Assembly: GCA_026390435.1 (NCBI GenBank)
Contig: JAPLFY010000040.1
Span: 40,223-104,222 of the forward strand
Direction: 5' to 3'
Length of the DNA: 64,000 nucleotides
Origin: Pseudomonadota bacterium
Lineage (GTDB): Bacteria > Bdellovibrionota_B > Oligoflexia > Oligoflexales > CAIYRB01
Every line of letters starts with the position of its first letter. The first letter of the stretch is position 1. The notes beneath the pieces were generated by a model. It saw only the letters and a program-made list of their open reading frames with translations. It did no database searches and was not told the origin of the DNA. A program made the translations under genes and the position numbers. This document shows, piece after piece, positions 6,651 through 39,144 of the stretch.

Positions 6651-6655
6651 GAGAG

Positions 6656-8062: not shown

Positions 8063-8103
8063 CGCCTGTAGCTGGGGCGTCACCGGGTTAAAGGACCTCA
8101 GTT

Positions 8104-10908
8104 ATGACGCAACAAGACGCCTCAGGCTCACCTCGATTCAGTTTTGCCACTGGCAACAATGTCGCATATCTCGAGCAACTATATGCGGCATTTAAACAAG
8201 ATCCGGCAAGCGTCGATCCGAGCTGGCGACAGTTCTTCGAAGGCTACGAATTTGCCGCTTCAGGCGACATCCTTGGAAGCGGTGGCGGCGGCGAAAGTCC
8301 GTTCACGGCTAGGGTCGAAGCATTTATCAATGCGTACCGACGGCTCGGGCATTTATCGGCGCACCTGAGCCCACTTGCTCCAGCACCAGGTATCGCAAAG
8401 GACATGTTGCCTGAGTCACACGGCCTGAAGGACGTCGACCCACTGCAGATGTTTAATCCAGCGAACTTGCCCGAGAAGGCAATGAGCTTTAAGGACATCA
8501 ATGCGCTGCTTACTGCCACCTATTGCGGTCGAATCGGGGCTGATTATCGGGAAATCAACGATATCGGCATCGTCACATGGCTGCAGGAGCAGATGGAAAG
8601 CTGCCGCAATCAGCCGCCATTAAGCGCGGAAGTGAAACGCCGCATCCTAACCAAACTGACGCAGGCTGAGGGATTTGAACAATTCCTCGGCCGCCGCTAC
8701 ATCGGCACCAAGAGGTTCTCCTTAGAGGGCGCTGATGCGTTCATCCCACTACTCGATTTAATCACCGCCGATGGCGCCAAAGCCGGCGTGGAAGAATTTT
8801 GTTTAGGCATGTCCCACCGTGGGCGTCTAAATTGTCTCGTGAACTTCCTCGGCAAGAGCTACGAGCTCATGCTTAAAGATTTCGAGGGTACGGAGTACAA
8901 TGCTTACGACATCGATGGCGATGTGAAGTATCACATGGGCTTTGCTAGCGAAGTGGCCACGATGAATGGCGACCGGGTACGTCTATACCTGTCTCCGAAC
9001 CCGAGCCATCTAGAGATCGTCAATCCGGTCGTCGAAGGATTCGTTCGCGGCCGTCAACGCCTGCTGAACGATCACGATCGGCATAAAGTATTACCAATTT
9101 TGATGCATGGCGATGCCTCATTTATGGGACAAGGCACGGTCTCGGAGACACTAAACTTATCTGGTCTGGCTGGTTACTCGACTGGCGGCACTGTACATAT
9201 TGTGATCAATAATCAGATCGGCTTCACCACAGATCCGCAAGAAAGTCGCTCGACGACTTATAGCTCCGATATCGCCAAGATGGTGCGGGCACCCGTTCTA
9301 CACGTGAACGCTGATGACCCGGAAGCGGTGATCTGGTGCGGCCGCCTAGCACTGGCCTACCGGCAAAAATTCCACCGAGACATCATCATCGATCTCGTCG
9401 GTTACAGACGTCACGGCCACAATGAAGGTGACGAGCCTGCCTTCACACAACCGCTCATGTATAAGAAAATCGCAGCACATCCTACGGTTTTGAAAATCTA
9501 TGCGGACAAGTTGGTGGCTGAAGGCACGGTCGATGCAGCGACCGTTGAGAAAGAGGCGAGCAACTTCCGCGACCGCATGCAAGCAGCGTACGATGCCGTA
9601 CACGGCAAAAAATCGCCGCAAATCCCTGCTCCCGTGATTCCGGCGGGTCTACAAAAAACGCTAACTTATAAAAAGGCCAGCCGCGAAGAAATTGCCCAAC
9701 CCGTAGCAACCGGCGTTAAAGCTGCGACTCTTCGCGCAATCGTTTCTAAAATCACGAAGGTACCCGAAGGGTTCACACTCCATCCAAAGCTTGCGCGGCT
9801 GCTTGAAAATCGACAAAAAATGGTCGACGGACAAGGCGCTATTGATTGGGGGCTAGGCGAACTACTCGCTTTAGGATCTTTGGCACTTGAGGGACGTCAT
9901 GTTCGCTTTACAGGTCAAGATGCTCAGCGCGGTACCTTTACCAGTCGGCATGCTGTTTACACTGACTTTCAAACTAATGAACGGTACGAAGCACTAAACT
10001 ACCTAGACCCGAAGCAGGCCACCGTCCACGTCATCAACAGCCCTCTTTCAGAGCAAGGATGTCTTGGCTTTGAGTTTGGTTACTCGGTCGCGGATCCAGA
10101 AGCACTAGTAGCTTGGGAGGCACAGTTTGGCGACTTTGCAAACGGCGCCCAGATCATTATCGATCAGTTCTTATCTGCATCAGAAGCCAAGTGGAAGCAG
10201 ACCAGTAGCCTGATCATGCTATTGCCTCATGGGCATGAGGGCCAAGGTCCGGAGCATTCGAGTGCGCGCCCTGAACGATTCCTTCAACTTTGCGGTAATT
10301 TAAACATGCAGGTGGCTATCCCAACGACTCCGGCACAGCACTTTCACGCCTTGCGTCGTCAGCTTCACCGCGACTTCCGCAAGCCACTCGTGCTGATGAC
10401 TCCGAAAAGTTTGCTGCGCGAACCACTATGCGTATCGCCAGTCGCTGATTTTCAAGACGGTCGATTCCACGAAATTTTGGATGAAACTATTCCCGCGAAA
10501 GCAGATGCTGAACGCGTCATATTCTGCTCCGGCAAGATTTATTATGACCTCATCAAGGCCAGGACTGAACAGAGTCAATTTGCCACTGTGCCCGTGATCC
10601 GACTTGAACAACTCTATCCATTCCCATATGGCCAAATGGAAGCCCTACTCACCAGCTATCCAAAACTTTCAGAAATAATTTGGACGCAAGAAGAGCCACA
10701 AAATATGGGTGGCTGGAACTTCGTGCGAGGTCGTCTGCTTGAAGTCCTTAAGCCAAGCCAAAAGCTAAACTACGTGGGCCGCAAAAACAGTGGGACACCG
10801 GCTGAGGGCTCCGGCAAGGCACATGAGGCTGAGCAAAAGCGAATTATTCAAGATGCCCTAGGTCGGGCGGCCGGCACCCTCGCGCAGGTTGCCGCAACTG
10901 GCAAGTAG
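8104..10908 (+). CDS. sucA: 2-oxoglutarate dehydrogenase E1 component
   Basis: 934 aa, with typical SucA blocks (RFSLEG, MSHRGRLN, HGDASFMGQG, YRRHGHNEGDEP, LLPHGHEGQGPEHSSARPERFLQL). Confidence 0.95.
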   Translation: MTQQDASGSPRFSFATGNNVAYLEQLYAAFKQDPASVDPSWRQFFEGYEFAASGDILGSGGGGESPFTARVEAFINAYRRLGHLSAHLSPLAPAPGIAKDMLPESHGLKDVDPLQMFNPANLPEKAMSFKDINALLTATYCGRIGADYREINDIGIVTWLQEQMESCRNQPPLSAEVKRRILTKLTQAEGFEQFLGRRYIGTKRFSLEGADAFIPLLDLITADGAKAGVEEFCLGMSHRGRLNCLVNFLGKSYELMLKDFEGTEYNAYDIDGDVKYHMGFASEVATMNGDRVRLYLSPNPSHLEIVNPVVEGFVRGRQRLLNDHDRHKVLPILMHGDASFMGQGTVSETLNLSGLAGYSTGGTVHIVINNQIGFTTDPQESRSTTYSSDIAKMVRAPVLHVNADDPEAVIWCGRLALAYRQKFHRDIIIDLVGYRRHGHNEGDEPAFTQPLMYKKIAAHPTVLKIYADKLVAEGTVDAATVEKEASNFRDRMQAAYDAVHGKKSPQIPAPVIPAGLQKTLTYKKASREEIAQPVATGVKAATLRAIVSKITKVPEGFTLHPKLARLLENRQKMVDGQGAIDWGLGELLALGSLALEGRHVRFTGQDAQRGTFTSRHAVYTDFQTNERYEALNYLDPKQATVHVINSPLSEQGCLGFEFGYSVADPEALVAWEAQFGDFANGAQIIIDQFLSASEAKWKQTSSLIMLLPHGHEGQGPEHSSARPERFLQLCGNLNMQVAIPTTPAQHFHALRRQLHRDFRKPLVLMTPKSLLREPLCVSPVADFQDGRFHEILDETIPAKADAERVIFCSGKIYYDLIKARTEQSQFATVPVIRLEQLYPFPYGQMEALLTSYPKLSEIIWTQEEPQNMGGWNFVRGRLLEVLKPSQKLNYVGRKNSGTPAEGSGKAHEAEQKRIIQDALGRAAGTLAQVAATGK

Positions 10909-13279: not shown

Positions 13280-13560
13280 TCAGTCGCCTACTAGTAAAGA
13301 CGATGACTAGATACCGCCGTGCAAGCGCGGCTTGATGGCGATCTGCCCCTCCGACGTTCGAGCGTAACTTCCTGAAGTAGCTTTCGTCGTCAGTGCGGAG
13401 GTTCACATCGCCACCAAACCACACATGCTGTGCGGCTCGAGCCCAGCTAAAAGCAAGACTCGATATATTAAGCGTAACCAAGCCTAGGCTGAGAGTCCAT
13501 ACCTAGATGAGAAAAGAAATGATCTAGAAAGAATGATCGGTAAAGACTCGCTCAAAAAAT

Positions 13561-13887
13561 CTAGGCTGACTTCTTCACTTTGCCCTTAGCTGGCGATTTT
13601 GACGCAGCTACCTTGCTCGCAGCAGGCTTCTGTGACGGAGCCATGTGAGCGCAGCATTGGATATCCCAACCCTTAGCAGATGCAGCTTTGAAGCTGGACG
13701 GGGCATTGAGACGCCATTCTTCACGGGTCGTGAAACGACGTGCAGCATGTTGGCATGTTTCAATAGTCCACCGGCTTTTTTTCTCCTCCTTCCTTAAGTG
13801 TTCGGCTGGAGTTTCGCTCACTGTTTCCGCTACGACCACAGCTGCAGCAGCGGCTTTCTTCTTATTCTCTTTCTCTTTCTCTGCCAT
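13561..13887 (-). CDS. small K/A-rich (histone H1-like tails) protein with a central W..E.C...GW...C.HM motif
   Basis: The ATG at 13887 is preceded by AAGGAGG. The tails are MAEKEKENKKKAAAAA and KPAASKVAASKSPAKGKVKKSA. The core is WTIETCQHAARRFTTREEWRLNAPSSFKAASAKGWDIQCCAHM. Confidence 0.55.
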   Translation of the reverse strand: MAEKEKENKKKAAAAAVVVAETVSETPAEHLRKEEKKSRWTIETCQHAARRFTTREEWRLNAPSSFKAASAKGWDIQCCAHMAPSQKPAASKVAASKSPAKGKVKKSA

Positions 13888-14039
13888 AGTACCTGCCTCC
13901 TTAGCTCCCACCTCAATCGAGTGGGTAGTCAGGTATCGTCGAAGCAAAGGGCGACTTGAGAAAAAAATGCCAGGTTATTCGTAAGGCCACGTAAAATCTT
14001 ATGTTTTTTCGATTCATCAAAAGAATGCAAAGACAGGCA

Positions 14040-14735
14040 CTAGGCAATTAATTCCGCGTCGATGCCAATTCTGACGGCAATAGCCCGCAGTGTGCCGTCC
14101 TTGCGAGCGGCATTAATGACCGCATCAACCTCGGCACAGAGCTGCAACCGATTACGCGGCAAAAACAGCGCGATGTCGTGACGATCTAATTCTCGCCATG
14201 CCGAGAGCGGGTGAGCCCTCAAAAGAATCTTGCCCTCAATGGCATCCGTGACGATGCAGTCAGCACCCGCACCAATTAGATTGGTTAATTGGCGATTATT
14301 ATCAGTTGTGACCACGATGTGGTGAGGAAACTCGTGGCGCACGACGCCCTCGAGATAGCCACCCTTGTTAACACCAATACGCAAACGAGGGTCGTCTATA
14401 GCTGAGCGCAAGTGACTGTCTCGTGGCCCGATCAAAATGGCGCGGTTACGTAGGTATGCCTCAGAGTACAAACCTAAACTTCTCCTGGCGCCAGTCACCG
14501 TGACACCCGAAGCAATCATGTCAAAAGCAGGATCATCCGCCAGACTACTCTGCAGTAGAGCTTCAAAATCTGTCCAAGAAAAACCCATAAACTGCACCCC
14601 GAGGCCCAATTTACCGGCGATCAATTGCGACAATTCGATATCAAATCCGTGATACCCGCTTGTACTTTCACTGCTAAACGGAGGGTAGTCACCACTAGTC
14701 GCAATTCGTAGCATGGGGCCGCGATTTTTTGACAA
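14040..14735 (-). CDS. family-3 solute-binding-protein-like protein (amino-acid-binding / cyclohexadienyl dehydratase-like fold), no signal peptide seen
   Basis: LRIATSGDYPPFS...GFDIELSQLIAGKLG...FDMIASGVTVT matches the SBP_bac_3 pattern. The TTG start has AAGGAG upstream. Confidence 0.6.
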   Translation of the reverse strand: MSKNRGPMLRIATSGDYPPFSSESTSGYHGFDIELSQLIAGKLGLGVQFMGFSWTDFEALLQSSLADDPAFDMIASGVTVTGARRSLGLYSEAYLRNRAILIGPRDSHLRSAIDDPRLRIGVNKGGYLEGVVRHEFPHHIVVTTDNNRQLTNLIGAGADCIVTDAIEGKILLRAHPLSAWRELDRHDIALFLPRNRLQLCAEVDAVINAARKDGTLRAIAVRIGIDAELIA

Positions 14736-14849
14736 AGTAATCTCCTTTGCGAGGCAAGTTTACCCTTAATGGCTGTACTTAAACTAAACTACAACATAAC
14801 AGCTGGTAAAGGACCAGATCACGTCTGAGACCAACCGAAGGACGCACAT

Positions 14850-16052
14850 ATGAATCATGAATTTGATATCACAATCTATGGAGCGACTGGGTTTACCGGC
14901 ACATTAGCCACTCGCTATTTAAGCGACGGCGCCGTGGACCACAACGAGCTGAAGCTGGCAATTGCAGGCCGTAACCAAGAAAAACTATCGGTTTTGGCAG
15001 CATCATGCGCTAAACAGCCGACGGTGATCGTAGCCGCTTCCGACGATATAGACGCAATAGAGGAGATGGTTAGACGGAGCAAAGTCGTGCTGAACTTTGC
15101 CGGCCCATTCGCTTTATATGCCGAACACATCATTGCTGCTTGCGCCCGCCAAGGTCGCACCTATCTAGACATCACTGGTGAGTCACCATTTGTGCGCAAG
15201 ATGCTTACAAAGTACCAAGATGTCGCTGAGGCGTCAGGCGCCAGAGTGATTCCATTTTCTGGCTTCGACTCAGTGCCTGCCGACCTAATGGCACAATTAG
15301 CGCTAGAATTCGCGGCCGCCACACAATTAAATTTAGATCGATTATCTGCCTACTACGAGCTTCAGGGTGGCCTCAACGGCGGCACACTCGCCTCAATACT
15401 TGAAATCTCTAAAGACACCTCGATCCCGACACTATTTGACTCAAAAATGCTCGTATTAGACCCAAGTTGGCCTCCCGTTCCGCCGCAAAAACTAACTCTG
15501 CACTATGAGCCGTACCTTAAATCGTGGAGTGTGCCTTTTGTCATGGCAGCGGTTAATCAAGCTGTGTTTCAACGCTCGCAGTGGCTCCGGCATAGGTTGG
15601 GCCAGCCTGTTACAACGACGCGATATGAGGAACACCAATGCTTTGGCCAAAAGATGAGCGCGTTGAAATGCTTAGCTGCGGCAGCTGCACTCGGCACTTT
15701 GGGCTCGTTAACTACCGGGGCTCTTGGTCGGAAAATCTTGCAAAAAATTGGCCCAAAGCCCGGCGAGGGACCCTCGGCAACAGTCCAGTCTCATGCATGG
15801 TTTCGCGCGCAAATGTTAGGGAGTTTAGATGGTAAGCCGCAAGTGCTCGTTACGATGAGTCGCAAGGGAGATCCCGGCAATGAGATCACGATCACCATGG
15901 CCTGCGAAGCGGCTAAACTAGCCGCTGAGGGTAAGTTCAGCACCAGGTTGTGCGGATTCCTCACTCCGAGTGTCGCCTTCTCCGGCGATCTCAAGAACCG
16001 CCTGGAGAAAGCTGGCTTTCAATTCAGTACTCAATCAATCGGCAAGAAGTGA
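14850..16052 (+). CDS. saccharopine dehydrogenase-like NAD(P)-binding oxidoreductase
   Basis: N-terminal Rossmann motif ITIYGATGFTGTL and an overall length typical of the saccharopine dehydrogenase / trans-acting enoyl reductase family. Confidence 0.65.
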   Translation: MNHEFDITIYGATGFTGTLATRYLSDGAVDHNELKLAIAGRNQEKLSVLAASCAKQPTVIVAASDDIDAIEEMVRRSKVVLNFAGPFALYAEHIIAACARQGRTYLDITGESPFVRKMLTKYQDVAEASGARVIPFSGFDSVPADLMAQLALEFAAATQLNLDRLSAYYELQGGLNGGTLASILEISKDTSIPTLFDSKMLVLDPSWPPVPPQKLTLHYEPYLKSWSVPFVMAAVNQAVFQRSQWLRHRLGQPVTTTRYEEHQCFGQKMSALKCLAAAAALGTLGSLTTGALGRKILQKIGPKPGEGPSATVQSHAWFRAQMLGSLDGKPQVLVTMSRKGDPGNEITITMACEAAKLAAEGKFSTRLCGFLTPSVAFSGDLKNRLEKAGFQFSTQSIGKK

Positions 16053-16699
16053 TATCCACCGGCGTTGACTGGGTACTTAAAGTACTTGGTCATAGGATGG
16101 GACGGCATCGTACACGGCACATGATTCTTCTGTACCAGCGCCAGTACCGCGACATTGCGATGATAGCCACCAATTGGCGCCACTTCTACCGGGACCACAT
16201 CGATGAGGGTCTCGGAGCATTTCTCTAAATAGGTCACGCTGACGTTCAGTTGATTTTCATTAGCGGGTTGCTGAGCGATATCGACAATTTTTGCGGGATA
16301 AAAATCGCCTTGAGCTTCATCTGGTCCGGTAATGATGTCAAAGCTATGAGCCACATCTGTCTGGGCGACATCAAGTGCAGCCTGATCAGTTGCTTCCGGG
16401 CATCGGCAGTCAGGACACTTATGACCGCTCATGATTGCACCTACCGCCACGTGACGCTTGTCCGTGGGATCGCTGGATGGAAGTTCGCGCGTGATCAAAG
16501 CCTCAAAATGCTCCGTGCAACCGACCGCATAGGTCACGTTAACCGGACCGCCGCTACTTGATACGCCTGCTGGATCAATTTTTAAAATACGGCCTAAAAA
16601 TACCTGCATCGGTTGCGACACGACTGCAACAGTCGATGGCTGCGAATCACAGGCATTAAGGGAAAGTGCTAAAAATGCCACCATCAAACTTTTCATCAT
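16031..16699 (-). CDS. lipoprotein, unknown function
   Basis: The ATG at 16699 has AGGAGAG upstream and gives MMKSLMVAFLALSLNAC (lipobox). The 3' end overlaps the convergent gene by 22 nt. Confidence 0.5.
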   Translation of the reverse strand: MMKSLMVAFLALSLNACDSQPSTVAVVSQPMQVFLGRILKIDPAGVSSSGGPVNVTYAVGCTEHFEALITRELPSSDPTDKRHVAVGAIMSGHKCPDCRCPEATDQAALDVAQTDVAHSFDIITGPDEAQGDFYPAKIVDIAQQPANENQLNVSVTYLEKCSETLIDVVPVEVAPIGGYHRNVAVLALVQKNHVPCTMPSHPMTKYFKYPVNAGGYHFLPID

Positions 16700-16750
16700 T
16701 ACTCTCCTGTATTTAAAAAAAAGGAAACGGCTGCTCAACTGTGTAACAAC

Positions 16751-17182
16751 TCATGGACATGCATCAAGAAAGCGCGACGTCACCTTGCCACTACTATCCG
16801 TGATAAAGCAATGCACAACGCCGTAGCCGCCAAATAATGCATGGCAATGGCTCGTCAACGCAGGGTCCGTTACGTTAGCCTTGCAGCTAATTTGGCGTGA
16901 AGTGCCACTACAAGTGTAGCTCGGTGTCTTGCATGGTTGCCCCGGTCCACCAGCCGTCCATTTACCAATCTCAGTATTATTTGGCGTACCGGGCGCATCA
17001 GGATTGCCAGGCACATTTGACACTAAGCAGGAATGTGAGCCATTAGGGTCAATCACTGCTGGGTCCCAACCGTAACCATTCCCGTTGTCGCTGCCATTCG
17101 TGCAGTAAGGGAAGTCGGCAGCCAGCGAGGTAACGGCAAAAAGACAAAAACTAAAGAGTAGCAAATTTTTAATCACACTCAT
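16751..17182 (-). CDS. secreted cysteine-rich small protein
   Basis: Signal peptide MSVIKNLLLFSFCLFAVTSLAA. The mature part is rich in Cys, Gly, Pro and Asn. Confidence 0.5.
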   Translation of the reverse strand: MSVIKNLLLFSFCLFAVTSLAADFPYCTNGSDNGNGYGWDPAVIDPNGSHSCLVSNVPGNPDAPGTPNNTEIGKWTAGGPGQPCKTPSYTCSGTSRQISCKANVTDPALTSHCHALFGGYGVVHCFITDSSGKVTSRFLDACP

Positions 17183-17292
17183 GATGATCATCCTCTCTCA
17201 AAGTTAGAAGAAGCAGAGCTGATGCTAAGCCAACAATAGCTGCGTCAGATCCGACTTTGACTGGGGTTTGCATGATTTGTGCCGAACAGACA

Positions 17293-17323
17293 TGAAAAAG
17301 CCCCGGCTTTATCAGCCAGGGCT
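17293..17323 (-). terminator. Rho-independent terminator downstream of tRNA-fMet
   Basis: On the minus strand, AGCCCTGGCT/AGCCGGGGCT forms a 10-bp stem (one G-U pair) with a 5-nt loop, followed by TTTTT. Confidence 0.7.
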
Positions 17324-17333
17324 TTTCCTATTT

Positions 17334-17410
17334 TGGTAGCGGGGAGCGGATTTGAACCGCTGATCTTCGGGTTATGAGCCCGACGAGATACCAGACTTCT
17401 CCACCCCGCG
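17334..17410 (-). tRNA. initiator tRNA-fMet (CAU)
   Basis: The reverse complement CGCGGGGTGGAG...TCGGGCTCATAACCCGA...GGTTCAAATCC...CCCCGCTACCA folds as a cloverleaf. It has three G-C pairs in the anticodon stem and an unpaired 1:72 position (C:U), both hallmarks of bacterial initiator tRNA. The CCA end is encoded. Confidence 0.93.
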
Positions 17411-17602
17411 GTAGTGTCGTCGTTGGAGACAGGTTATAAGCCCTCGATCCTCAGGCGTCAACAAAATAGCATCAGATTTTCATATCTTCGCTCCGATGGT
17501 CCTAAAGAGAGGCTCTGCCCCCCGATCCTACGAGGATTTTAAGGCCCAAGGGGATTTAGACTTGCGGAAATCCACCCCCTAGATTACCCATTAAGTCCGC
17601 AT

Positions 17603-17692
17603 GGAGAGATGGCCGAGTGGCTGATGGCGCACGCTTGGAAAGCGTGTTTACCCTTAAAAGTAACGTGGGTTCGAATCCCACTCTCTCCGCCA
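17603..17692 (+). tRNA. tRNA-Ser (GGA)
   Basis: GGAGAGATGGCCGAGTGG..., anticodon loop TTGGAAA, long variable arm, GGTTCGAATCC T-loop, and acceptor stem GGAGAGA/TCTCTCC followed by GCCA. Confidence 0.93.
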
Positions 17693-17747
17693 CTACCTCC
17701 CAATAAAATCAATAAATTAAGCAGCATAACCATCGTCTGATACGGAC

Positions 17748-17766
17748 GCGGTAGACGATCTACCGC
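17748..17766. promoter_or_regulatory. inverted repeat upstream of the integrase remnant
   Basis: GCGGTAGA-cga-TCTACCGC forms 8-bp arms. It is nested in a second inverted repeat, ATCGTCT...AGACGAT, 27 nt upstream of the ATG at 17793. Confidence 0.35.
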
Positions 17767-17792
17767 AGTTTCACCGTAAAAGGAGGATAGCG

Positions 17793-18654
17793 ATGGGCTA
17801 TTACATTCGTGCGCTCACGGACAAAAAGAAGTTTCCGAAATGGAAAGTGCCGTTCATCTCGTACAAGAAGGCTGACGCTGAGAACCCGGCTGCCCCCAAA
17901 CCCAAGAAGGAATAGGGACGTACCGAGAGATCGCTGGCGTGCTCTTGGCTTTCTGACACGCATGAAGGTAAACGAAGCGCGAGCTCGGGCCAAGCAACTC
18001 AATAGTCTCTAGCTCATCAAGCGCCAAGAAAAGAAGCTTCGACAACTTCGCCTGGAGGAGCGTGAGACCGGCCGCAAGTACCGGGCCTTTCTTCCCGAGG
18101 AGTTCAAAGAGGAATTTGAGCGGCGATTTCTGCGGCGGCGCGACAGCCAGACCGACGCCAAACTTCGGCGTTTCACCCGCGCCCACACGCTTTGGCGGGC
18201 TGTCCAAAAACTGATCATCCATGTGAAGATCGAACCGTCCGAATGGTTTTGCAACCAGTACCAAATTTACGATTATCTCTACGAAAGTAATTTCAGCCTG
18301 TCATACAACAACAAGTTGCTCACCGTCCTCAACCTGTGGGGATTCTTTATCTGCAAGAAGCTGGATCAGCCGTTTCTACCGGTGGCGAAGCCACGCGGCT
18401 ACGAACGTCAACGATTGGTCGACAACTACTACCAAAACCGCGGCGACAAAAAGCAGGGGTCTGGTCCACTGTCACCGGAAGCTCTGATGACCGCGCAAGG
18501 GAAGATGAAGGTGAAGCAATTCAATTGGCTATTTATCTCGGTGTGGCTTGGTCTTCGTCCGCTTGAGATCGACAACTTACAGAGCGGCGACTTTTGGCGG
18601 GTGGAAACACTGCCGATCGGAACGCAAATCCTTTGGGTATTCCAAACCAAGCTG
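17793..18654 (+). pseudogene. tyrosine recombinase (phage-type integrase) pseudogene: frameshifted, nonsense-interrupted and 3'-truncated
   Basis: AGGAGG is followed by an ATG at 17793 that reads MGYYIRALTDKKKFPKWKVPFISYKK... to a TAG at 17913. The reading continues in the +1 frame (WRALGFLTRMKVNEARARAKQLNSL). An in-frame TAG sits at 18010-18012. The frame then runs LIKRQEKK...FISVWLGLRPLEIDNL (Arg box) and ends without the HxxR/Tyr catalytic half. Confidence 0.65.
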
Positions 18655-18858
18655 ATGCGCGGAAGCCAACTCACCTGCCAGGAGGTCCGCACCGTGCTTA
18701 AGGACTTAGGCTACGAACTGGTTCGCCAGCGCGGCAGCCATGAGCAATGGGTCAAAGACGGCAGAACCTTCACTCTGGCCGCTCATGGCAAAGATGCTCC
18801 GCATTATATCTTGGACGCTCTTCGAAAACTGAGCGAGGAACACCATGAAAAAAAGTAA
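18655..18858 (+). CDS. hicA: HicA mRNA-interferase toxin
   Basis: MRGSQLTCQEVRTVLKDLGYELVRQRGSHEQWVKDGRTFTLAAHGKDAPHYILDALRKL fits the HicA pattern (GSH..., about 67 aa). The ORF-track ORF 18223-18858 runs in frame from the integrase remnant into hicA. Confidence 0.8.
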   Translation: MRGSQLTCQEVRTVLKDLGYELVRQRGSHEQWVKDGRTFTLAAHGKDAPHYILDALRKLSEEHHEKK

Positions 18859-19222
18859 AACTAAGATCACCCGACATGCTGTCGAGGTCCTCGAGTATCA
18901 AGTAAATATAGCTTTTGATGTCCGCGACAAAATTCACGTCGCCAGAATACCAGAGCTGGAGAACTGCCATAGCCACGGCACTACGCCGGAAGAGGCTTTG
19001 GCAAACGCCAAAGAGGCTATCGAGTTATGGCTCGAGACCGCCAAAGAGCAGGGCCTCAATATCCCCGAGCCGGTCAGTCGGCGTCAATTTTCGGGAAAAT
19101 TCGTCCTTAGAACATCGCCAAACCTACATGCCACGTTAGCGCAGGAGGCCGCCCATCACGGCAAGAGCCTTAACGAGATGGCTGTCGAGTTGATCCAAAA
19201 GGGGCTCAAGGGAGTCGGGTAG
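18845..19222 (+). CDS. hicB: HicB antitoxin (HicB N-domain plus C-terminal RHH-like DNA-binding tail)
   Basis: It overlaps hicA by 14 nt. IPELENCHSHGTTPEEALANAKEAIELWLE is the HicB fold motif. The C-terminal FVLRTSPNLHATLAQEAAHHGKSLNEMAVELI is RHH-like. Confidence 0.8.
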   Translation: MKKSKTKITRHAVEVLEYQVNIAFDVRDKIHVARIPELENCHSHGTTPEEALANAKEAIELWLETAKEQGLNIPEPVSRRQFSGKFVLRTSPNLHATLAQEAAHHGKSLNEMAVELIQKGLKGVG

Positions 19223-30189: not shown

Positions 30190-30279
<90 letters not shown>

Positions 30280-30409
30280 CCCCAAGTTTCCGAATTAATT
30301 CCAGAAATCCCCCCCTATAAATACCGCTTATGATGATGCTACGGCTGCAGAAAATCTGCTGTCCCGTAAGCTACTTAAGTTCAGCTGGCGTAAACTCCAC
30401 TAAATTGGT

Positions 30410-30476
30410 AGACATTTCCGCCAACGGAATTAATGTCTGAGAGTGGGTCTCTCTGAGAGTGAGCCTAGTGAGCCTA
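30410..30476 (+). promoter_or_regulatory. repeat-rich leader upstream of sufB (candidate operator region)
   Basis: It contains the inverted repeat AGACATTTCCG...CGGAATTAATGTCT (30410-30438), a direct repeat TCTGAGAGTG at 30436 and 30452, and a tandem GTGAGCCTA at 30459 and 30468. It ends 18 nt before the sufB ATG. Confidence 0.35.
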
Positions 30477-30493: not shown

Positions 30494-31939
30494 ATGACTT
30501 CGGACGCTGCGACGCAATCGTTCTCAAACCGCGAATATAAGTACGGCTTTGTCACCGATGTGGAAGCGGACGCTTTCCCTAAGGGACTGGATGAAGATGT
30601 CATCCGCCGACTTTCGCAAATTAAGAACGAGCCCGATTTTGTCCTCGAGTTCCGACTCAAGGCCTTTCGTTACTGGCAAAAGATGGAGGTACCGCAGTGG
30701 GCGCACGTCAACTACCCACCGATCGACTTCCAAGATATTCGCTATTATTCGGCGCCTAAAAAGAAAGCTCCTGGCCCCACGAGCCTCGACGAGGTCGACG
30801 CTGAAATTATCGACACCTTTAATCGCTTGGGCATCCCGCTCGCCGAGCAAAAACGCCTTACCGGCGTTGCTGTAGATGCTGTCTTTGATTCTGTCTCCGT
30901 AGCAACGACCCACAAAGAAGAACTATCCAAGCATGGGGTCATCTTCTGCTCTTTTTCCGAGGCCCTACGCGAACACACCGAGCTAGTGAAGCGCTGGCTC
31001 GGCAGTGTGGTCCCCTACAAAGACAACTACTACGCTGCACTTAACTCGGCAGTGTTCAGTGACGGTTCTTTTGTGTACATCCCGAAAGGCGTTAGGTGTC
31101 CGCTCGAATTATCGACGTATTTCCGTATCAACGCGGCAGAAACAGGTCAGTTTGAGCGCACCCTGATCATCGCGGAAGAAGGCAGCCACGTTAGCTACCT
31201 CGAAGGCTGCACAGCGCCGATGCGGGACGAAAATCAGTTACACGCAGCTGTCGTGGAACTGGTAGCTCTGGCCAATGCCGAGATCAAATATTCGACCGTC
31301 CAAAACTGGTACGCGGGCGACAAAGAGGGCAGAGGCGGCATCTATAATTTCGTCACCAAACGCGGCATCTGCTTAGGCGAAAGGTCGAAAATTTCCTGGA
31401 CTCAAGTTGAGACAGGCTCGGCCATCACCTGGAAATATCCCAGCGTGATCTTGCAAGGTGATTACTCAACTGGCGAATTTTATTCCGTCGCCTTAACCAA
31501 CAACAAGATGCAAGCCGACACCGGCACCAAGATGGTGCATATCGGTAAGAATACGACCAGTAAGATCATATCCAAGGGAATTTCGGCCGACGAATCGGTC
31601 AACAGCTACCGCGGCCAGGTAAAAATCCTGCCGTCAGCAACAAATGCGCGCAACTTCTCACAGTGTGATTCCATGTTGGTTGGCAATAAATGCAGTGCCA
31701 ACACTTTTCCATATATAGAAGTGAAGAACCCCACCGCACGCGTCGAGCATGAGGCTAGCACCTCCAAGATCAGTGCTGAGCAGGTCTTCTACTTAAAGTC
31801 CCGTGGTCTTGATGATGAAGCAGCGATTAGCTTGCTGCTGAATGGTTTCTGCAAAGAGGTATTCAAAGAATTGCCTCTGGAGTTTTCTGTTGAGGCAGTG
31901 CGCCTGCTCGAAATGAAGCTCGAAGGGAGCGTTGGTTAA
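30494..31939 (+). CDS. sufB: Fe-S cluster assembly scaffold SufB
   Basis: Typical SufB blocks are present ([64 protein letters not shown]). The ATG at 30494 has GGAGG 5 nt upstream. Confidence 0.93.
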
Positions 31940-31940
31940 T

Positions 31941-32693
31941 ATGTTAGAGATTCGTGATTTAAAAGTCGAAGTAGACGAGAAGAGCATTCTAAAGGGACTC
32001 AACCTAACGGTTAAAGAGGGCGAAGTACATGCCATCATGGGTCCTAATGGATCTGGCAAAAGCACCTTGTCGAAAGTCATCGCTGGCCATCCAGACTATA
32101 AAGTCAGCGGTGGTGAGCTAGCTTACGAGGTCAACTTCAAAAAGAAGAATCTTCTCGATTTAAGTCCAGACGAACGTGCTCGCGAAGGCATCTTCCTCGC
32201 CTATCAATATCCAGTGGAAGTGCCTGGCGTTAACAATGCCGAATTCCTGCGCGCCGCCTTCAATGCTGCCGTCCGCCACCAAGGCGGCGAAGAGATGGAC
32301 CCACTCGATTTTGATACATATTTACGAGAAAAAGTCCGCTATCTCGGCATGAATGAGAAGTTCATCGAGAGGCAACTCAACGTCGATTTCTCCGGTGGAG
32401 AAAAGAAACGCAACGAGATCCTCCAGATGGCGATCCTCTCCCCGCGCCTATCGATCCTCGACGAGACCGATTCTGGCCTCGACGTTGACTCGCTGCGCTT
32501 GGTGTCCGAGGGCGTCAACAAGCTACGGACTGAGAACAACGCACTCATACTCATCACTCACTATCAGCGTATCCTCAACTACATTGTGCCAGACTATGTG
32601 CACGTACTAGCCGGTGGCCGCATTATCAAGAGCGGCGATAAAAACCTGGCACTGGAGATTGAGGAACGCGGTTACGACTGGCTGCTGCAATAA
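31941..32693 (+). CDS. sufC: Fe-S cluster assembly ATPase SufC
   Basis: Walker A GPNGSGKST, the ABC signature FSGGEKKR, Walker B ILDETDSGLD, and the H-loop ITHY. Confidence 0.95.
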   Translation: MLEIRDLKVEVDEKSILKGLNLTVKEGEVHAIMGPNGSGKSTLSKVIAGHPDYKVSGGELAYEVNFKKKNLLDLSPDERAREGIFLAYQYPVEVPGVNNAEFLRAAFNAAVRHQGGEEMDPLDFDTYLREKVRYLGMNEKFIERQLNVDFSGGEKKRNEILQMAILSPRLSILDETDSGLDVDSLRLVSEGVNKLRTENNALILITHYQRILNYIVPDYVHVLAGGRIIKSGDKNLALEIEERGYDWLLQ

Positions 32694-32700: not shown

Positions 32701-34011
32701 ATGTCATCGATGCAAAAGCAATCTGATCCACGCAATCCATTTGCCAATGCCTTCGCTGCCTGGCAAGCGCAGCGTCAGGATCCAACCTGGGTTTCTGAAC
32801 TGCGTCAGGACGCTTTCACAGCCTTTGACTCGTCGGGTCTACCGACTCGTCGGGATGAAGAGTGGAAATATACGAGCCTGCGCCCTGTCAGTGACATCAA
32901 CTACAGTCTTGCAGCAGTGCTCGCTGATTCCGCCACAGTTCGTGAGGCTATCTCCGACTACATCGTTAGTGACGAAACGGTGCTGGTATTCGTCAACGGA
33001 CAGCCATCTCTAAGCAACAGCAACATCGACCACAAGCAACCAGGTCTTACGTTGACGAGCTTAACCGACGCCCTTTCGAGCCATGGCGACTACTTGCGCC
33101 CTCGCTTGCAACAGAGCTTGATGGCAGCGCAGCCATTTACGCGACTTAACGCTGCTTTTCTCGGTAACGGCACCCTCCTTGAACTTGCGCCAAACACCGT
33201 TTGCGAACGTCCGCTCCACATCTTGCATGTGAGTACGTCTGAGGCGCATGATACGGCACAGGCTCCGCGACACTTTTTAGTCTTAGGCGAGGGCAGTGAG
33301 CTCAAACTCACCGAGACCTTTGTAAGCGCAGCCGGACAAACGCGCTCCTTCACAAATAGTCATACAGACATACAGATCGCTCCCGGAGCAAGACTTCAAT
33401 ACAGCCGTATAGACCTTCAGGGCGAATCGGCATTGCATGTAGGCAGAGGCCGAATTGAGCTCGGTCGAAATGCAAGTCTAGACTCATTCTGTTACAGCGC
33501 CGGCGGTCGTCTCAGTCGTTACGATCTCGATGTAGTGCTGGCAGGTGAAGGAGCCGATGCTGAACTAAACGGCCTTTATTTGACTAAGGCTGGTCAAGTG
33601 GTTGACCATCACACCACCGTCCACCACTTGGTGCCAAATGCCACGAGCCGCCAGCTGTACAAAGGAATCCTCGACGGTGATAGCAGAGCTGTATTCAACG
33701 GCAAGGTGGTCGTAACTAGAGAGGCTCAAGGCACGAACGCACAACAGCTGAACAGGAATCTTTTACTCAGCGCTGACGCTGAGATCGACACCAAGCCCGA
33801 GCTGATGATCGACGCCGATGATGTGAAGTGCTCCCACGGTGCCAGTATCGGCCAGCTAGACGAAGATCAAATTTTTTATCTCCGCAGCAGGGGATTAACC
33901 ACTCTTGAAGCTCGCAAACTGCTGACGACAGCTTTTGCTGATGATGTCTTGCTGAAAGCGCCTCACGTCAGAAAGCGACTACGCTCAAGAACGATGGGGT
34001 ACTTTACATGA
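32701..34011 (+). CDS. sufD: Fe-S cluster assembly protein SufD
   Basis: The position between sufC and sufS fits, and the C-terminal beta-helix motifs ([35 protein letters not shown]) are SufD-like. The ATG at 32701 follows the sufC stop. Confidence 0.9.
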
Positions 34012-35243
34012 CTGCAGCATCCACACAAAAACTAGCGGTTGAGGAAATCCGTAAGGATTTCCCCATTCTCTCAACCACTGCGCGTGGTCGTCCCCTGGTT
34101 TACCTAGATAACGCCGCGACCACTCTAAAGCCCAAATCTGTTGTGGAGGCGGTCCAACGCCACTTGCTACTCGGCGCATCTAATGTGCACCGCGGGGTAC
34201 ACTACCTAAGTGAAAAGGCTACCGCAGACTTTGAAGCATCGCGGGAAAAGGTGCGTAGCTTTATCAATGCCAGAGAAAAGGCGGAGATTATTTTCACAGC
34301 TGGCACCACCGCCGGTATTAATCTTGTCGCTCACAGCTACGGTTCCCTGCTGAAAGCGGGCGACGAGATCATCATCAGCGCCATGGAGCATCACTCTAAT
34401 ATTGTGCCTTGGCAGATGCTTTGTGAACGCCAAGGGCTAACACTCCGAGTAGTGCCGGTAAATGATCGCGGCGAGCTTGACCTCACCGCGCTAGAGCAAC
34501 TCATCAACCAGAAGACGCGGCTAGTTGCGATTGTTGCGGTGTCGAACGCTCTAGGTACGATCAATCCGATCAAACATATCATCGATCTGGCCCACAGCCA
34601 CGACGTGCCCGTATTGCTTGATGCTGCACAAGCAGTGGCACACATTCCGTTAGACGTTCAGACTCTGGATGTCGACTTTCTCGTATTCTCGTCGCACAAA
34701 CTCTTTGGCCCAACAGGCTTAGGCGTTCTTTACGGACGTCGCGAGTTACTGGACCGAATGCCGCCATTTTTAGGTGGCGGCGACATGATCAGGTCTGTCA
34801 CTTTTGCTAAAACTACTTATGCTGAACTGCCAGCAAAGTTTGAGGCTGGGACTCCCCATATTGCAGGTGTGATCGGTCTAGGCGCGGCGATTGACTATGT
34901 CAATCACGTCGGTCTAGCTGCTATTGCCGCGGCGGAAGACGAACTGCTACATTACGGTAAGCGCTGTTTAAGCGAGATTCCGGGCCTACGTATGATCGGC
35001 ACCGCCGAGCACAAGACCAGCATCTTCGGATTCGTACTGGATGATATCCATCCGCACGATATAGGCACTCTGCTAGATCAAGAAGGGATCGCAATCCGAG
35101 CTGGCCATCATTGCACACAGCCGCTCATGGACCGTTTCGGTGTACCTGCAACAGCTAGAGCCAGTTTGGCTTTCTATAATACAAAAAGTGAAATCGACTC
35201 TTTGGTGCAAGCAATCCTCAAAGTGCAGAGGTTATTTGCATGA
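34008..35243 (+). CDS. sufS: cysteine desulfurase SufS (group II)
   Basis: PLP-Lys motif [17 protein letters not shown] and the catalytic Cys loop [10 protein letters not shown]. It overlaps sufD by 4 nt. Confidence 0.93.
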
Positions 35244-35704
35244 CATCACAAGTAGATCTTTACCAGCAGGTCATCCTCGACCACAACAAAAAGCCTCGTA
35301 ATTTCAAAAAGTTAGAAAGCCACACCCATGCTGCCGAAGGGTTCAACCCTCTGTGTGGCGATCACCTTTGGGTTTACCTGCAGATCGCTAAAAGCCCCGA
35401 TGGTGCCGACGTGATTCACGAGGCGGCGTTCGAAGGTAGCGGCTGCGCCATTTGTAAAGCTTCGGCATCAATGATGACCATGGCGCTTAAAGGGCAATCA
35501 CCGGGCACAGCTAAAACCCTCTTTAGTGAATTTCAAAGTCTGCTCAAGGGCGAGCTAAATCCCGACACAGAAGCTCACAGCCTTGGAAAGCTCAAAATAT
35601 TCTCGGGGATCTGGCAGTACCCAGCACGGGTAAAATGCGCTGCTTTAGCCTGGCATGCTCTCAACGGAGCGCTCAGCAATCAGCAGACAGTTTCTACTGA
35701 GTGA
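35240..35704 (+). CDS. sufU: zinc-dependent sulfurtransferase SufU (IscU-like)
   Basis: [20 protein letters not shown] and RVKCAALAW carry the three Cys ligands plus the SufU-type insertion. Confidence 0.88.
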
Positions 35705-35712: not shown

Positions 35713-36285
35713 ATGATAGAACTAGCAACTAATCTGCAGCTTCGTACGCAAAAAACGCCAAATCCAAATGCATGGAAGTTTATCCTTAGCGTCGATATCA
35801 AGCGCGACGGGAAGATTTCCTACACGGAAACTCGTGAATGTGAGCACGTGCCACTTGCGACCTCGCTCCTTCGACTAGCTAATGTTACGCAGGTCCATCT
35901 TTTTGAGAATGTGATCACGGTAACGCAAAATGGCGCCTCAGATTGGGCAGCGCTGAGCCAAAGCGTCGAAGACGTCATCCGCAGAACTCTACCCGAGCAC
36001 GACCCAGATTTTGCTGAGTCTATGGCTAAACCCAAACGAGTAGAGCGAACCGCGCTACCTCTCGATATTCAGCAACTAGAAGAAATACTGGACCGAACCA
36101 TCCGCCCAGGTCTGCAGGCCGACGGTGGTGATATCGAGATTTTGGAACTCGATGGCAATATCCTAACCGTGCGCTATCAAGGTGCCTGTGGTGGCTGTCC
36201 TAGCGCGATGATGGGCACTCTCCAGGGAATTGAAAGTATTTTACGCAGCGAATTTAATCCATATTTGGAGGTCGTGGCGATATGA
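35713..36285 (+). CDS. Nfu-type Fe-S carrier (Nfu_N domain plus NifU C-terminal domain)
   Basis: The C-terminal domain IRPGLQADGGDIEILELDGNILTVRYQGACGGCPSAMMGTLQGIE contains the CxxC motif. The ATG at 35713 has GAGGT upstream. Confidence 0.85.
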   Translation: MIELATNLQLRTQKTPNPNAWKFILSVDIKRDGKISYTETRECEHVPLATSLLRLANVTQVHLFENVITVTQNGASDWAALSQSVEDVIRRTLPEHDPDFAESMAKPKRVERTALPLDIQQLEEILDRTIRPGLQADGGDIEILELDGNILTVRYQGACGGCPSAMMGTLQGIESILRSEFNPYLEVVAI

Positions 36286-36701
36286 GCCAGCTACAATCAG
36301 TCGTCATCAGCACTAAAGCCGATGGCAGTTGGCAGGCAGTCCATGTTCCCTCGGGTAAAACGAGCCATGGTTTGACCAAAGTAGAGGCCGAGGACAGCAT
36401 GCGCGAGCTCCTCGGCATGACCGAAGAAGGCAGCTTTCAGGAGCCGTTAACCAGCGATCGCTTCTCGGGGCTGGCGGCAGATATTGCTCTCTTTCTCGAG
36501 GGTCAAGTGTCGGAAATGTTGGCACTCCACTCGGGTTTCGCCCGCTTGGAGGCTTTTGATAGCGGCATCGCCCACATTCGCCTCGGTGGTGGCTGCCAGG
36601 GATGTCCGTCCTCGACCATGACTCTACTCAACGGCGTGCAGCAGCAACTGCAGGAACGTTTCGGCGAGGAAAGCATCGTCGACATAGTGCCCGTGTTGTA
36701 A
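36282..36701 (+). CDS. NifU C-terminal-domain protein with an atypical about 45-aa N-terminal module
   Basis: The C-terminal IAHIRLGGGCQGCPSSTMTLLNGVQQQLQERFGE has the NifU_C CxxC motif. The N-terminal DGSWQAVHVPSGKTSHGLTKVEAEDSMRELL resembles the HicB/UPF0150 fold pattern. It overlaps the upstream gene by 4 nt. Confidence 0.7.
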   Translation: MSQLQSVVISTKADGSWQAVHVPSGKTSHGLTKVEAEDSMRELLGMTEEGSFQEPLTSDRFSGLAADIALFLEGQVSEMLALHSGFARLEAFDSGIAHIRLGGGCQGCPSSTMTLLNGVQQQLQERFGEESIVDIVPVL

Positions 36702-36725: not shown

Positions 36726-37220
36726 ATGAATATCACCTCGAAAAGTCGCTATGCACTCAAGATCATGATGGATCTCTGTGGGCACTGGGCCGCCGACGAC
36801 AACCAGTTGATCCAGCGCGGAGATATTGCCGCGAGGCAGGGCATCCCCCTAGACTACATGGATCACATCCTTAGCCGCTTGCGTGAGGCCGGGCTGATCG
36901 CGAGTACACGCGGCCGCAGTGGGGGCTATCGCCTGGCGCAGCTCCCCATGGAGCTGACCGTGCTGGCTATTTTCACGGCTGTTGAAGACAATTTTGAGCC
37001 AGTCCAATGCCTAGAAGGCGGGACATCTTGCATGGCCGAGCATGTCTGCAGCTCAAAGGATGCCTGGGGTGTGATTTCCAGCGCGATTCGTGCCGCACTT
37101 TCTGGCATTATACTAGAAGACCTCGTTCATCAGCGGGGGATCGCCAGGGGACTTGAGTTTTTGACAATGACTCCCCAGGAATGTCGAGCGCCAAAACGCC
37201 GCGCAGGAGGCACGAACTAG
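36726..37220 (+). CDS. Rrf2-family transcriptional regulator (IscR-like, three-Cys cluster ligands)
   Basis: N-terminal wHTH ([13 protein letters not shown]...[38 protein letters not shown]) and [14 protein letters not shown] (C-x6-C-x5-C). Confidence 0.85.
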
Positions 37221-37224: not shown

Positions 37225-37707
37225 ATGAAGCAAGATCAGCAAAACCAAGATCAATCGTTTTTTACTACCAAAGCACATCAATTTCTAGCTTGGGCTAGGA
37301 AAAACTCACTATGGCCCTATACATTCGGCACCGCCTGCTGCGGTATTGAGTTTATGTCTGTCGTGGGCCCTAAGTACGACATCGCCCGTTTTGGCGCGGA
37401 AGTAGTACGCTTCTCCCCCCGTCAGGCGGACTTGATGATCGTTGCTGGCACCATCACCGAGAAGATGGCACCCATCATCAAGAAAGTATGGGAGCAAATG
37501 CCAGAGCCAAAGTGGTGCATCGCTATGGGCGCATGTGCATCAAGCGGTGGCTTTTACCGCGCTTATCACGTGGTGCAAGGGGTCGACCGGATTATCCCTG
37601 TAGACATCTACATCGCTGGGTGCCCTCCCACCCCAGAGGCGGTAATTACCGGGCTTATGACTCTGCAAGACAAGATCACAGAGAAAGCCATAGGCAAGCA
37701 GGCCTAA
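37225..37707 (+). CDS. nuoB: NADH-quinone oxidoreductase subunit B (NuoB/PSST-like), stand-alone
   Basis: [34 protein letters not shown] and [10 protein letters not shown] carry the complete set of N2-cluster Cys. The gene starts 4 nt after the Rrf2 stop. No other nuo genes are in the window. Confidence 0.88.
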
Positions 37708-37725
37708 TAAACTATCGCTACTAAT

Positions 37726-37767
37726 CCCGGAGCACTCTCACACGAGAACGCTCCGGGATTTTTTTTA
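37726..37767 (+). terminator. Rho-independent terminator ending the suf-Rrf2-nuoB operon
   Basis: CCCGGAGC/GCTCCGGG forms an 8-bp stem with a 16-nt loop, followed by ATTTTTTTT. Confidence 0.8.
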
Positions 37768-37833: not shown

Positions 37834-39144
37834 TCAGTTTTGTTCAAGCACCGGCTTGCCATCAAATCCCAATCGGTTGAAAGCTTCACGCCAATGACAG
37901 TAAGTCACACCATCTTCAATTCGTGCAATTGGATCCTGTGAAATTACATAGGCGTCAGCCTTGGGAAAGTCAGCAAGGAATGAGCGCAAGTGTCGCCCAT
38001 CGGCGTGGGTGGCTACACTTTTAGATTTGATCTCAATTAATGCTGTCCGATGTCCCGGACGCTCAATGATCAGGTCAACTTCAGCTTGGTCCGTTGCGAT
38101 GTAGGAGAATTTCGCTTCGTCTTCCTGGTAACTCGATAGTCGATGAAACTCACATATGATCCATTGTTCAAAGGCCAAGCCAAAATCGCTAGTGCCAGCT
38201 GCCATTGGTGTGCTCAATTGCCCTTTCAATGCTCTCGCTACGCCACTATCAAATAAGAAAAATTTTGGTGCGTGACGCTGTCTTTTCCGAAGGCTTGCGT
38301 GGAATGCCTCTAAATAAAAACCGATTAAAGTATCACTCAAAATTTCGTAGTAGTTCTTTACGGTCTTATCGGCGACTCCAACATCTCGTGAAATACTAAC
38401 GTGATTTATAGCTTCACCAGACATTTGCGCCGCAATTGGTAGAAATCGTCTAAATGGCTCGAGTTTTTCTATCAGGTGCTCGGCCCAAATTTCTTCTTTC
38501 AAATAGGTTGCGGCATAACTGCGCAAAAATGCTGCGCGTTGTCGATTCGAATCCAGCGAGTAAATCTTCGGCAGCGTTCCCCAATTAAGGGCTATATCGA
38601 GGTCGAAGTCTTGACCAAGCTCGATATGAGTCAAAGGGAACATGTTATTAACGAACGCTCGCCCTGCAAGAAGGTTGACGCCGGCTCGCTTGAGCTTGCG
38701 AGCGCTGGAACCTGTCATCGCAAACCGAACACCATTTAGATTTTTGTCCTCAATCATGTCGTGTACTGAGTTGAGAAGCTGAGGCAGCTTCTGAATCTCA
38801 TCAATAACCACCCATTTAGGCTTTTTTAGCTCTACTTCACTACGCAAAAGTCCTGGATTTAGAGCTAGGCGGTTCTCCTGATTGGCTATAAGGAGATCAA
38901 AACGTAGCAATGAGTCTGCATCCAGCTCGTGAAATAGCTCCTTCAGAAACGAAGTTTTACCAGTGCCCCGAGCTCCAAATAGGAAGAAGCTATCACTCAA
39001 AATAGGCTGAACAAGTCGTCTGTATCTAGGCAAAAATCCAACCCCGGTTACGAAAAATGAGGCATAATTCGTAATATATATTGTCATATATTGTTGCAAT
39101 AGTCCAATATTATTGCAACTAGTCACCCAATGCCCCGCAATCAT
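37834..39144 (-). CDS. AAA+ ATPase of the AAA_14/DUF4143 type
   Basis: Walker A LFGARGTGKTSFL, Walker B VVIDEIQK, and a C-terminal region with restriction-endonuclease-like/DUF4143 features (EVDLIIERPGHRTALIEIKS). The start is uncertain: the ATG at 39087 or a later codon is possible, because the first about 20 codons lie in AT-rich sequence. Confidence 0.7.
   Translation of the reverse strand: MIAGHWVTSCNNIGLLQQYMTIYITNYASFFVTGVGFLPRYRRLVQPILSDSFFLFGARGTGKTSFLKELFHELDADSLLRFDLLIANQENRLALNPGLLRSEVELKKPKWVVIDEIQKLPQLLNSVHDMIEDKNLNGVRFAMTGSSARKLKRAGVNLLAGRAFVNNMFPLTHIELGQDFDLDIALNWGTLPKIYSLDSNRQRAAFLRSYAATYLKEEIWAEHLIEKLEPFRRFLPIAAQMSGEAINHVSISRDVGVADKTVKNYYEILSDTLIGFYLEAFHASLRKRQRHAPKFFLFDSGVARALKGQLSTPMAAGTSDFGLAFEQWIICEFHRLSSYQEDEAKFSYIATDQAEVDLIIERPGHRTALIEIKSKSVATHADGRHLRSFLADFPKADAYVISQDPIARIEDGVTYCHWREAFNRLGFDGKPVLEQN

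Follow-up and report, generated by a model that had tools for sequence, protein, structure and literature searches.

A nuoB gene for the cluster N2 subunit of complex I at the 3′ end of a suf-rrf2 gene unit in a freshwater Bdellovibrionota bacterium

The 64-kb stretch of DNA analysed here, which will be denoted as the window, belongs to a freshwater Bdellovibrionota bacterium. Between 30.4 and 37.8 kb it harbors the co-directional unit sufB-C-D-S-U-nfu-nifU-rrf2-nuoB, of which nuoB is the closing gene. The genes and features of this region are listed below together with the evidence for their assignment.

30190..30279, + strand: tRNA-Ser(CGA), found with ARAGORN; bounds the suf transcription unit on its 5′ side
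30382..30422, + strand: conserved non-coding element of 41 nt located 5′ of sufB (…AAATTGGTAGACATT…); candidate promoter or Rrf2 operator
30494..31939, + strand: sufB; called as a gene on the identical contig L001, with Pfam SufBD_N/SUFBD_core
31941..32693, + strand: sufC, ABC ATPase; ABC_tran
32710..34011, + strand: sufD; SUFBD_core
34008..35243, + strand: sufS, cysteine desulfurase; Aminotran_5
35240..35704, + strand: sufU; NCBIfam TIGR01994 (SufU) with 137 bits against a cut-off of 92.5, and Pfam NifU_N
35713..36285, + strand: nfu-type Fe-S carrier with Nfu_N and NifU C-terminal domains; Pfam
36282..36701, + strand: second protein with a NifU C-terminal domain, carrier-like; Pfam NifU, 4.6e-15
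36726..37220, + strand: rrf2-family regulator; Pfam Rrf2 (PF02082), 2.9e-32
37225..37707, + strand: nuoB, ORF of 160 aa for the 20-kDa/PSST subunit of complex I carrying cluster N2; Pfam, NCBIfam, Nqo6 alignment, tree and dN/dS
37723..37766, + strand: intrinsic terminator; interrupted hairpin of 15 pairs (37723-37760) and T8 (37759-37766)

The tRNA-Ser(CGA) gene lies directly 5′ of the suf control region and thereby confines the suf promoter to the approximately 210 nt that separate this gene from sufB; the same tRNA is found upstream of sufB in the related loci L011, L149 and L122. The 41-nt element is kept in the window, L011, L149 and L154 despite diverged flanking sequence, and an inverted repeat (AGACATT-N15-AATGTCT, 30410-30438) overlaps this putative promoter or operator. 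From sufB to nuoB all genes are on the same strand, with neighbors either overlapping or separated by gaps of at most 24 nt, and no internal terminator is found between them. The single terminator follows nuoB and is as strong as had been supposed from the sequence at the outset, with a folding energy of -25.2 kcal/mol and z = -7.8 relative to shuffled sequences; a consensus terminator scan with a loop limit of 8 nt is blind to this hairpin. In strand, gaps, terminator position and gene order in relatives, nuoB shows the layout of a member of the suf operon, and sufB to nuoB would be transcribed together, starting from a promoter near 30.4 kb.

Beyond the terminator an AAA_14/DUF4143 ATPase gene (37834-39144, - strand) is positioned convergently to nuoB and is polymorphic, being present on some contigs and absent from others. 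In contigs L003 and L006, which encode the identical NuoB, hemH comes directly after nuoB without this gene, and it is missing in L011 and L117 as well.

The ORF at 37225-37707 matches the Pfam domain Oxidored_q6 (PF01058) with an E-value of 2.7e-29 and clearly passes the cut-offs of the NCBIfam NuoB subfamily model NF005012 (241.6 bits versus 116) and of TIGR01957 (232.6 bits versus 142.7). By contrast, the NCBIfam hydrogenase small-subunit models yield at most 30 bits with cut-offs of 179-500, as exemplified by FrhG (30 versus 245.5 bits). The closest solved structure is Nqo6 from T. thermophilus (phmmer E 1e-59, residues 10-156), followed by the E. coli, mycobacterial, mitochondrial and plastid homologues, while the Hyc/Mbh-type proteins HycG and MbhJ score about half as high (approximately 104 bits versus 204 bits for Nqo6). 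A small subunit of a group 4 [NiFe]-hydrogenase of the Mbh/Hyc type was ruled out by these model and PDB scores, as well as by the lack of a large subunit nearby. Cys38, Cys39, Cys104 and Cys133 of the window protein, including the tandem Cys-Cys, align with a constant offset of +7 with Cys45, Cys46, Cys111 and Cys140 of Nqo6, which we take to be the ligands of the [4Fe-4S] cluster N2. The loop of the quinone site (R-x-SPRQ-A/S-D) is intact, with VRFSPRQAD of the window protein in register with FRASPRQAD of Nqo6, and is kept across the clade. The original prediction of a complete NuoB/PSST homologue with all four N2 cysteines is thus borne out by family models and alignment, and the protein is, as judged from its sequence, a canonical complex I NuoB and not a new kind of protein. 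It shares domain, family scores above cut-off, tandem-Cys N2 ligands and the SPRQAD loop with the NuoB/Nqo6/PSST (NDUFS7) family, whereas it differs from the usual members in that its gene adjoins no other nuo gene and closes, as last cistron, an operon for Fe-S biogenesis.

This isolation extends throughout the window, in which 37.2 kb of sequence upstream and 26.3 kb downstream of nuoB are covered. Searches of the 64 kb with NuoCD, NuoE, NuoF, NuoG and NuoI from Bdellovibrio gave no match at all (tblastn), and in a comparison of all ORFs of 80 reference nuo loci with all ORFs of the window only nuoB was matched (blastp). These reference loci are among the matches listed in a NuoB search of genome contigs and stem mostly from other phyla, with three Bdellovibrio loci among them. 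The early observation that nuoA, nuoC and nuoD are missing for more than 25 kb on either side is in line with these searches. The other genes scanned in the window, namely sucB-lpdA-sucA, amylases, motAB and prfA-like genes, bear no relation to nuo. The 2-oxoglutarate dehydrogenase genes (5409-10908, + strand) are arranged as sucB (E2), lpdA (E3) and sucA (E1), the common order being sucA-sucB-lpd.

The regulator encoded immediately upstream of nuoB passes the NCBIfam rrf2_super cut-off and fails those of the IscR equivalog TIGR02010 (94.8 bits versus 207.55) and of NF008110 (82.2 bits versus 275); it is therefore denoted as an Rrf2-family regulator and not as IscR. Its cluster cysteines C-x6/7-C-x5-C are conserved in an alignment of 21 Rrf2 homologues. 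A fourth invariant cysteine of window-type Rrf2 proteins is located in the conserved C-terminal motif ECRAP(K/R), which reads ECRAPKRR in the window. As in the IscR/Rrf2-controlled Fe-S operons (iscRSUA, sufABCDSE, and RisR in Myxococcus), an Rrf2 protein with cluster cysteines is encoded within the operon and is its presumed controller. Contrary to those systems, rrf2 is positioned near the 3′ end instead of being the first gene, its product falls below the IscR equivalog cut-off and has the additional conserved cysteine, and the gene appears to be translationally coupled to that of an Fe-S client.

The latter point is inferred from the junction. The rrf2 stop codon TAG ends at 37220 and the nuoB ATG begins at 37225, i.e. 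nuoB starts 4 nt past the stop, as initially noted. An AGGAGG (37205-37210) is located inside the last rrf2 codons 5′ of the nuoB ATG, and it is encoded by the conserved Rrf2 tail, the codons of which (RAGG) form the Shine-Dalgarno sequence of nuoB. Twenty rrf2-nuoB junctions were compared; 17 come from metagenome loci and the others from the window, L011 and L013, with some of them sharing a species or even a contig. In eight junctions (seven ATGA and one TTGA) the stop codon of rrf2 overlaps the start codon of nuoB, and a gap of 1-4 nt is present in another eight (L149, L155, L011 and its duplicate L121, as well as the window together with three contigs of its species), while two junctions overlap by 17-23 nt and only two have wider gaps of 22-56 nt. 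With an overlap or a gap of at most 4 nt in 18 of 20 cases there is no space for an intergenic promoter, and the stop/start geometry indicates translational coupling of nuoB to rrf2. A consensus scan of the + strand detects no sigma-70-like promoter site within the window rrf2. The pair is kept in L013 despite other downstream genes and an inserted nadA, and in L155 although the adjoining nifU is on the opposite strand. Among the sequences compared, the rrf2-nuoB junction is the most conserved feature of the suf-nuoB arrangement.

In order to see how general the linkage to suf is, metagenomes were surveyed with the pattern FGTACCGIE-32 aa-GTITEKM, which had matched all detached nuoB loci collected beforehand and none of the 80 reference loci. 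The resulting 69 matches count loci and not independent lineages. Linkage to suf is found in 18 of them, 17 with an rrf2-nuoB pair (NuoB identity to the window 74-99%) and one with nifU-nuoB without rrf2 (81%). Two other conserved contexts account for 19 further detached loci, namely nine with nuoB-X-icd next to exbB (77-83%) and ten with surA-NAD-kinase-like-nuoB (68-77%). The operonic order nuoB-nuoCD-E-F-G-I is present in 17 loci (66-72%), and the remaining 15 have other contexts or contigs that are too short (64-79%). Relatives retrieved one by one show further contexts, with nuoB standing alone in L097 and paired with an AAA-ATPase gene in L098. As judged from these gene orders, the detachment of nuoB is clade-wide and the suf-rrf2 site is its commonest destination.

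Over the suf-linked loci the identity to the window ranges from 100% down to 52% for Rrf2, with three further loci harboring a more distant Rrf2 type, and from 100% to 50% for SufD, a spread which corresponds to suf-nuoB linkage in at least seven distinct lineages. The synteny in relatives, proposed for comparison along with the original prediction, is thus conserved in at least seven lineages with saturated synonymous sites; L011 and L013 share the suf-rrf2-nuoB arrangement as well. Conserved synteny also includes hemH and apaG downstream in close relatives, and a part of the linkage conservation may therefore reflect low rearrangement. Outside the clade, suf genes are found within 10 kb of nuoB in only two of 77 non-Bdellovibrio loci among the matches listed, which is about chance level, and a general suf-nuoB enrichment across phyla was dropped for this reason. 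One locus of Sulfobacillus harzensis (L037, 4283-7594), a member of an unrelated phylum, has a sufB-like gene, immediately after it nuoB without nuoC or nuoD, then a convergent gene for an Fe-S-transfer P-loop NTPase of the NUBPL/Mrp type; this adjacency may represent an independent pairing of nuoB with Fe-S biogenesis or chance.

The contexts of the other detached copies are conserved in themselves. In the nuoB-X-icd lineage a conserved protein X of 315-320 aa is encoded 0-11 nt after nuoB (L014, 10480-11439; L096, 10600-11547; L100, 10521-11483; also L112, L137, L140, L141, L153 and L173), followed by an isocitrate-dehydrogenase-like gene, with exbB-exbD divergent upstream. Protein X has no Pfam match and no homologue in the window. 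In L100 an operon rrf2-sufS-sufU-sufC-sufB-sufD-Rieske (13491-19158, - strand) converges on the nuoB unit and ends about 0.75 kb beyond icd, some 3 kb from nuoB; it is headed by rrf2 and so differs in order from the window, where rrf2 is near the end. The order surA-like, NAD-kinase-like, nuoB is present in L099 (5639-8706), L119, L123, L135, L139, L142, L143, L147, L168, L174 and L178 and often continues with a response-regulator-like gene. In L013 (3833-10501; GCA_041391425.1) the suf operon lacks sufS, and nadA, which codes for the [4Fe-4S] enzyme quinolinate synthase, directly precedes rrf2-nuoB, so that two Fe-S client genes are found on this biogenesis operon.

The remaining subunits of the peripheral arm were located in relatives. 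In the three Bdellovibrio loci among the matches listed (L016-L018) nuoB heads an operon nuoB-nuoCD-E-F-G-I without nuoA upstream, and the same holds for the more distant relative L101. In GCA_041391425.1 the situation is different. Its contig JAWKNZ010000002.1 (455,933 bp) contains sufB-C-D-sufU-nfu-nadA-rrf2-nuoB at about 107 kb (L013) and, at 368-374 kb and thus 261 kb away, a nuoCD-E-F-G-I operon without nuoB (L102, 358-380 kb). The gene upstream of nuoCD is divergent there, and no remnant of nuoB was detected at this locus by tblastn. The NuoCD of this relative was found via a representative library at 50% identity, a cluster look-up and a search seeded with P0242 that led to P0522; a direct search with the Bdellovibrio NuoCD returned only Bdellovibrionia with at least 78% identity. 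A second lineage (P0481; L103-L110), a species other than that of the window, likewise has nuoCD-E-F-G-I without nuoB, here behind a TMEM260-like gene. These operons point to a removal of nuoB from the head of the peripheral-arm operon to its present position elsewhere. The original prediction had considered a split complex I locus and suggested looking for a nuo operon with or without its own nuoB: in the relative with suf-rrf2-nuoB this operon exists on the same contig, with all of nuoCD, nuoE, nuoF, nuoG and nuoI, and lacks nuoB, which supports the split. Two operonic loci (L126 and L144) have a further Oxidored_q6 gene at their end, after nuoI; its product of about 161 aa (L126, 1594-2079, - strand; Pfam E 3.8e-21) shares only 33% identity with NuoB.

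A separation of the complex I genes is not without precedent in the phylum. A nuoAHJKLMN cluster has been reported for all Bdellovibrionota studied and a "split arrangement" for BALOs in a comparative genomics study of 2026 (PMC13147790), in which nuoB in a suf operon is not described. The window shares with the Bdellovibrio-like split (nuoB-CD-E-F-G-I plus nuoAHJKLMN), in which the genes of the two arms are already separated, the phylum and an orthologous NuoB. The difference is that nuoB, too, no longer belongs to the peripheral-arm operon, which in relatives begins at nuoCD. The split organisation of nuo is already published for the phylum, whereas a nuoB gene within a suf-rrf2 operon is not described in the literature searched and appears to be what is new. 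Genes of a complex I-type enzyme are also spread over several loci in the ndh system of cyanobacteria and plastids, where nevertheless a single enzyme is assembled. There, however, ndhK, the counterpart of nuoB, has remained together with ndhC and ndhJ, whereas the window nuoB has no nuo neighbor and adjoins suf-rrf2.

Taken together, the window nuoB most probably encodes the complex I NuoB of this genome, relocated and expressed from the SUF/Rrf2 transcript, a reading to which we assign a probability of roughly 0.75. According to it, nuoB would have headed the peripheral-arm operon nuoB-nuoCD-nuoE-nuoF-nuoG-nuoI in the ancestor, as it still does in Bdellovibrio, would have left this operon in a large sister clade within the Bdellovibrionota and, in the lineage of the window, would have become the last cistron of sufBCDSU-nfu-nifU-rrf2-nuoB. 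It would then depend on the suf promoter for its transcription and be translated in tandem with the presumably Fe-S-sensing Rrf2 regulator, which in its cluster-dependent form may control the suf promoter via the upstream element in the manner of IscR-type regulators. NuoB synthesis should consequently track that of SUF and Rrf2, with the protein made beside two Nfu-type carriers, while the other subunits of the peripheral arm would be supplied by a separate nuoCD-E-F-G-I operon elsewhere. The earlier suggestion that NuoB supply is tied to cluster-assembly capacity agrees with the layout, i.e. the 4-nt gap, the ATGA overlap in relatives, and the lack of an internal terminator combined with the one after nuoB. 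The coupling as such, including co-transcription, control by Rrf2 via the upstream element and a benefit of matching NuoB supply to Fe-S assembly, is a presumption drawn from gene arrangement.

Different explanations of the arrangement have to be weighed against this reading. Since the window derives from a metagenome scaffold, an error of assembly or binning might have fused the suf operon to an unrelated nuoB. The identical NuoB protein with the same neighbors is, however, present on 23 contigs of differing samples and assemblers from independent ENA and Logan assemblies. The JGI contigs L122, L138 and L175 carry 99%-identical copies from the same species in the same arrangement, and the junction recurs in NCBI MAGs and in diverged sequences, so that an artefact is excluded for practical purposes. 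Another explanation, put forward in the original prediction, is a paralogue with a different role, neo-functionalised outside complex I, e.g. as a sensor of Fe-S status or a partner of Rrf2 or SUF. Translational coupling of a respiratory subunit to a regulator is indeed unusual, and no other nuo gene is found within 26-37 kb of the window nuoB. On the other hand, a neighbor-joining tree (89 NuoBs, core of 142 residues) unites the detached copies with those of Bdellovibrio in a single clade, the named nearest relatives of the window protein being Bdellovibrionota and Oligoflexales MAGs. With 77 outgroup NuoBs the detached copies share on average 59.0% identity and the operon-encoded Bdellovibrio copies 57.7%, i.e. 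there is no acceleration of rate. In comparisons of the window with 13 other suf-linked lineages, synonymous changes have reached saturation (pS 0.71-0.89) with dN at 0.07-0.11, and where computable dN/dS to the suf-linked NuoBs is about 0.03 and never above 0.04, which corresponds to strong purifying selection. These values characterize a vertically inherited, constrained protein and not a drifting paralogue, as far as sequences can tell. The conserved N2 ligands and SPRQAD loop, the need for the detached copy in the relative with a partner operon devoid of its own nuoB, and the occurrence of the same orthologue in unrelated contexts in sister lineages likewise speak against this idea, and we consider it highly improbable.

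A more serious competitor is a neutral relocation, in which nuoB encodes a normal complex I subunit, came to lie after rrf2 by rearrangement and is adjacent to it without regulatory meaning, its expression being secured by an internal promoter or by post-transcriptional buffering. At least three other conserved contexts are in favor of it, namely surA-NAD-kinase-like-nuoB with its ten loci, nuoB-X-icd with its nine, and the stand-alone or other contexts of L097 and L098; detached copies next to such unrelated genes imply that the suf site is not required for function. The synteny of hemH and apaG, kept in close relatives just as the linkage to suf, points in the same direction. Against it, 18 of 20 junctions leave no space for an intergenic promoter and no sigma-70-like site was found inside rrf2, although a promoter within rrf2 may still exist. 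Moreover, the overlapping rrf2-nuoB pair persists through saturating divergence and outlasts changes on both flanks (L013, L155, L156), which argues for a linkage that is maintained. A purely neutral origin of the adjacency therefore appears rather unlikely. The stronger version of the preferred reading, in which the rrf2-nuoB coupling is a selected regulatory design, such that the signal that sets SUF also gates assembly of the complex I Q-module and the Rrf2 tail codons serve as ribosome-binding site of nuoB, is put forward only tentatively and seems more doubtful than the relocation itself. The adaptive value of making more of an Fe-S client when SUF is derepressed, i.e. under Fe-S scarcity, is not obvious.

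Because the protein itself is ordinary, the interest of the suf-rrf2-nuoB unit is organisational and regulatory and not mechanistic; for specialists in complex I or Fe-S proteins the linkage will be a mild surprise that opens no long-standing question. It has a practical side for annotation, since the genes of complex I are commonly regarded as a single operon and surveys often score the complex by clustered nuo genes: with a peripheral-arm operon that lacks nuoB, members of this clade would be mis-scored as having an incomplete complex I. At the same time the clade provides a natural experiment on complex I assembly, in which the subunit of the terminal cluster N2 is placed behind a presumably Fe-S-sensing regulator and two Nfu-type carriers. 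If the arrangement is a selected design, it would represent a previously undescribed matching of the biogenesis of a respiratory complex to cofactor supply, and if nuoB expression follows SUF, it would offer a testable case of cofactor supply controlling the assembly of such a complex.
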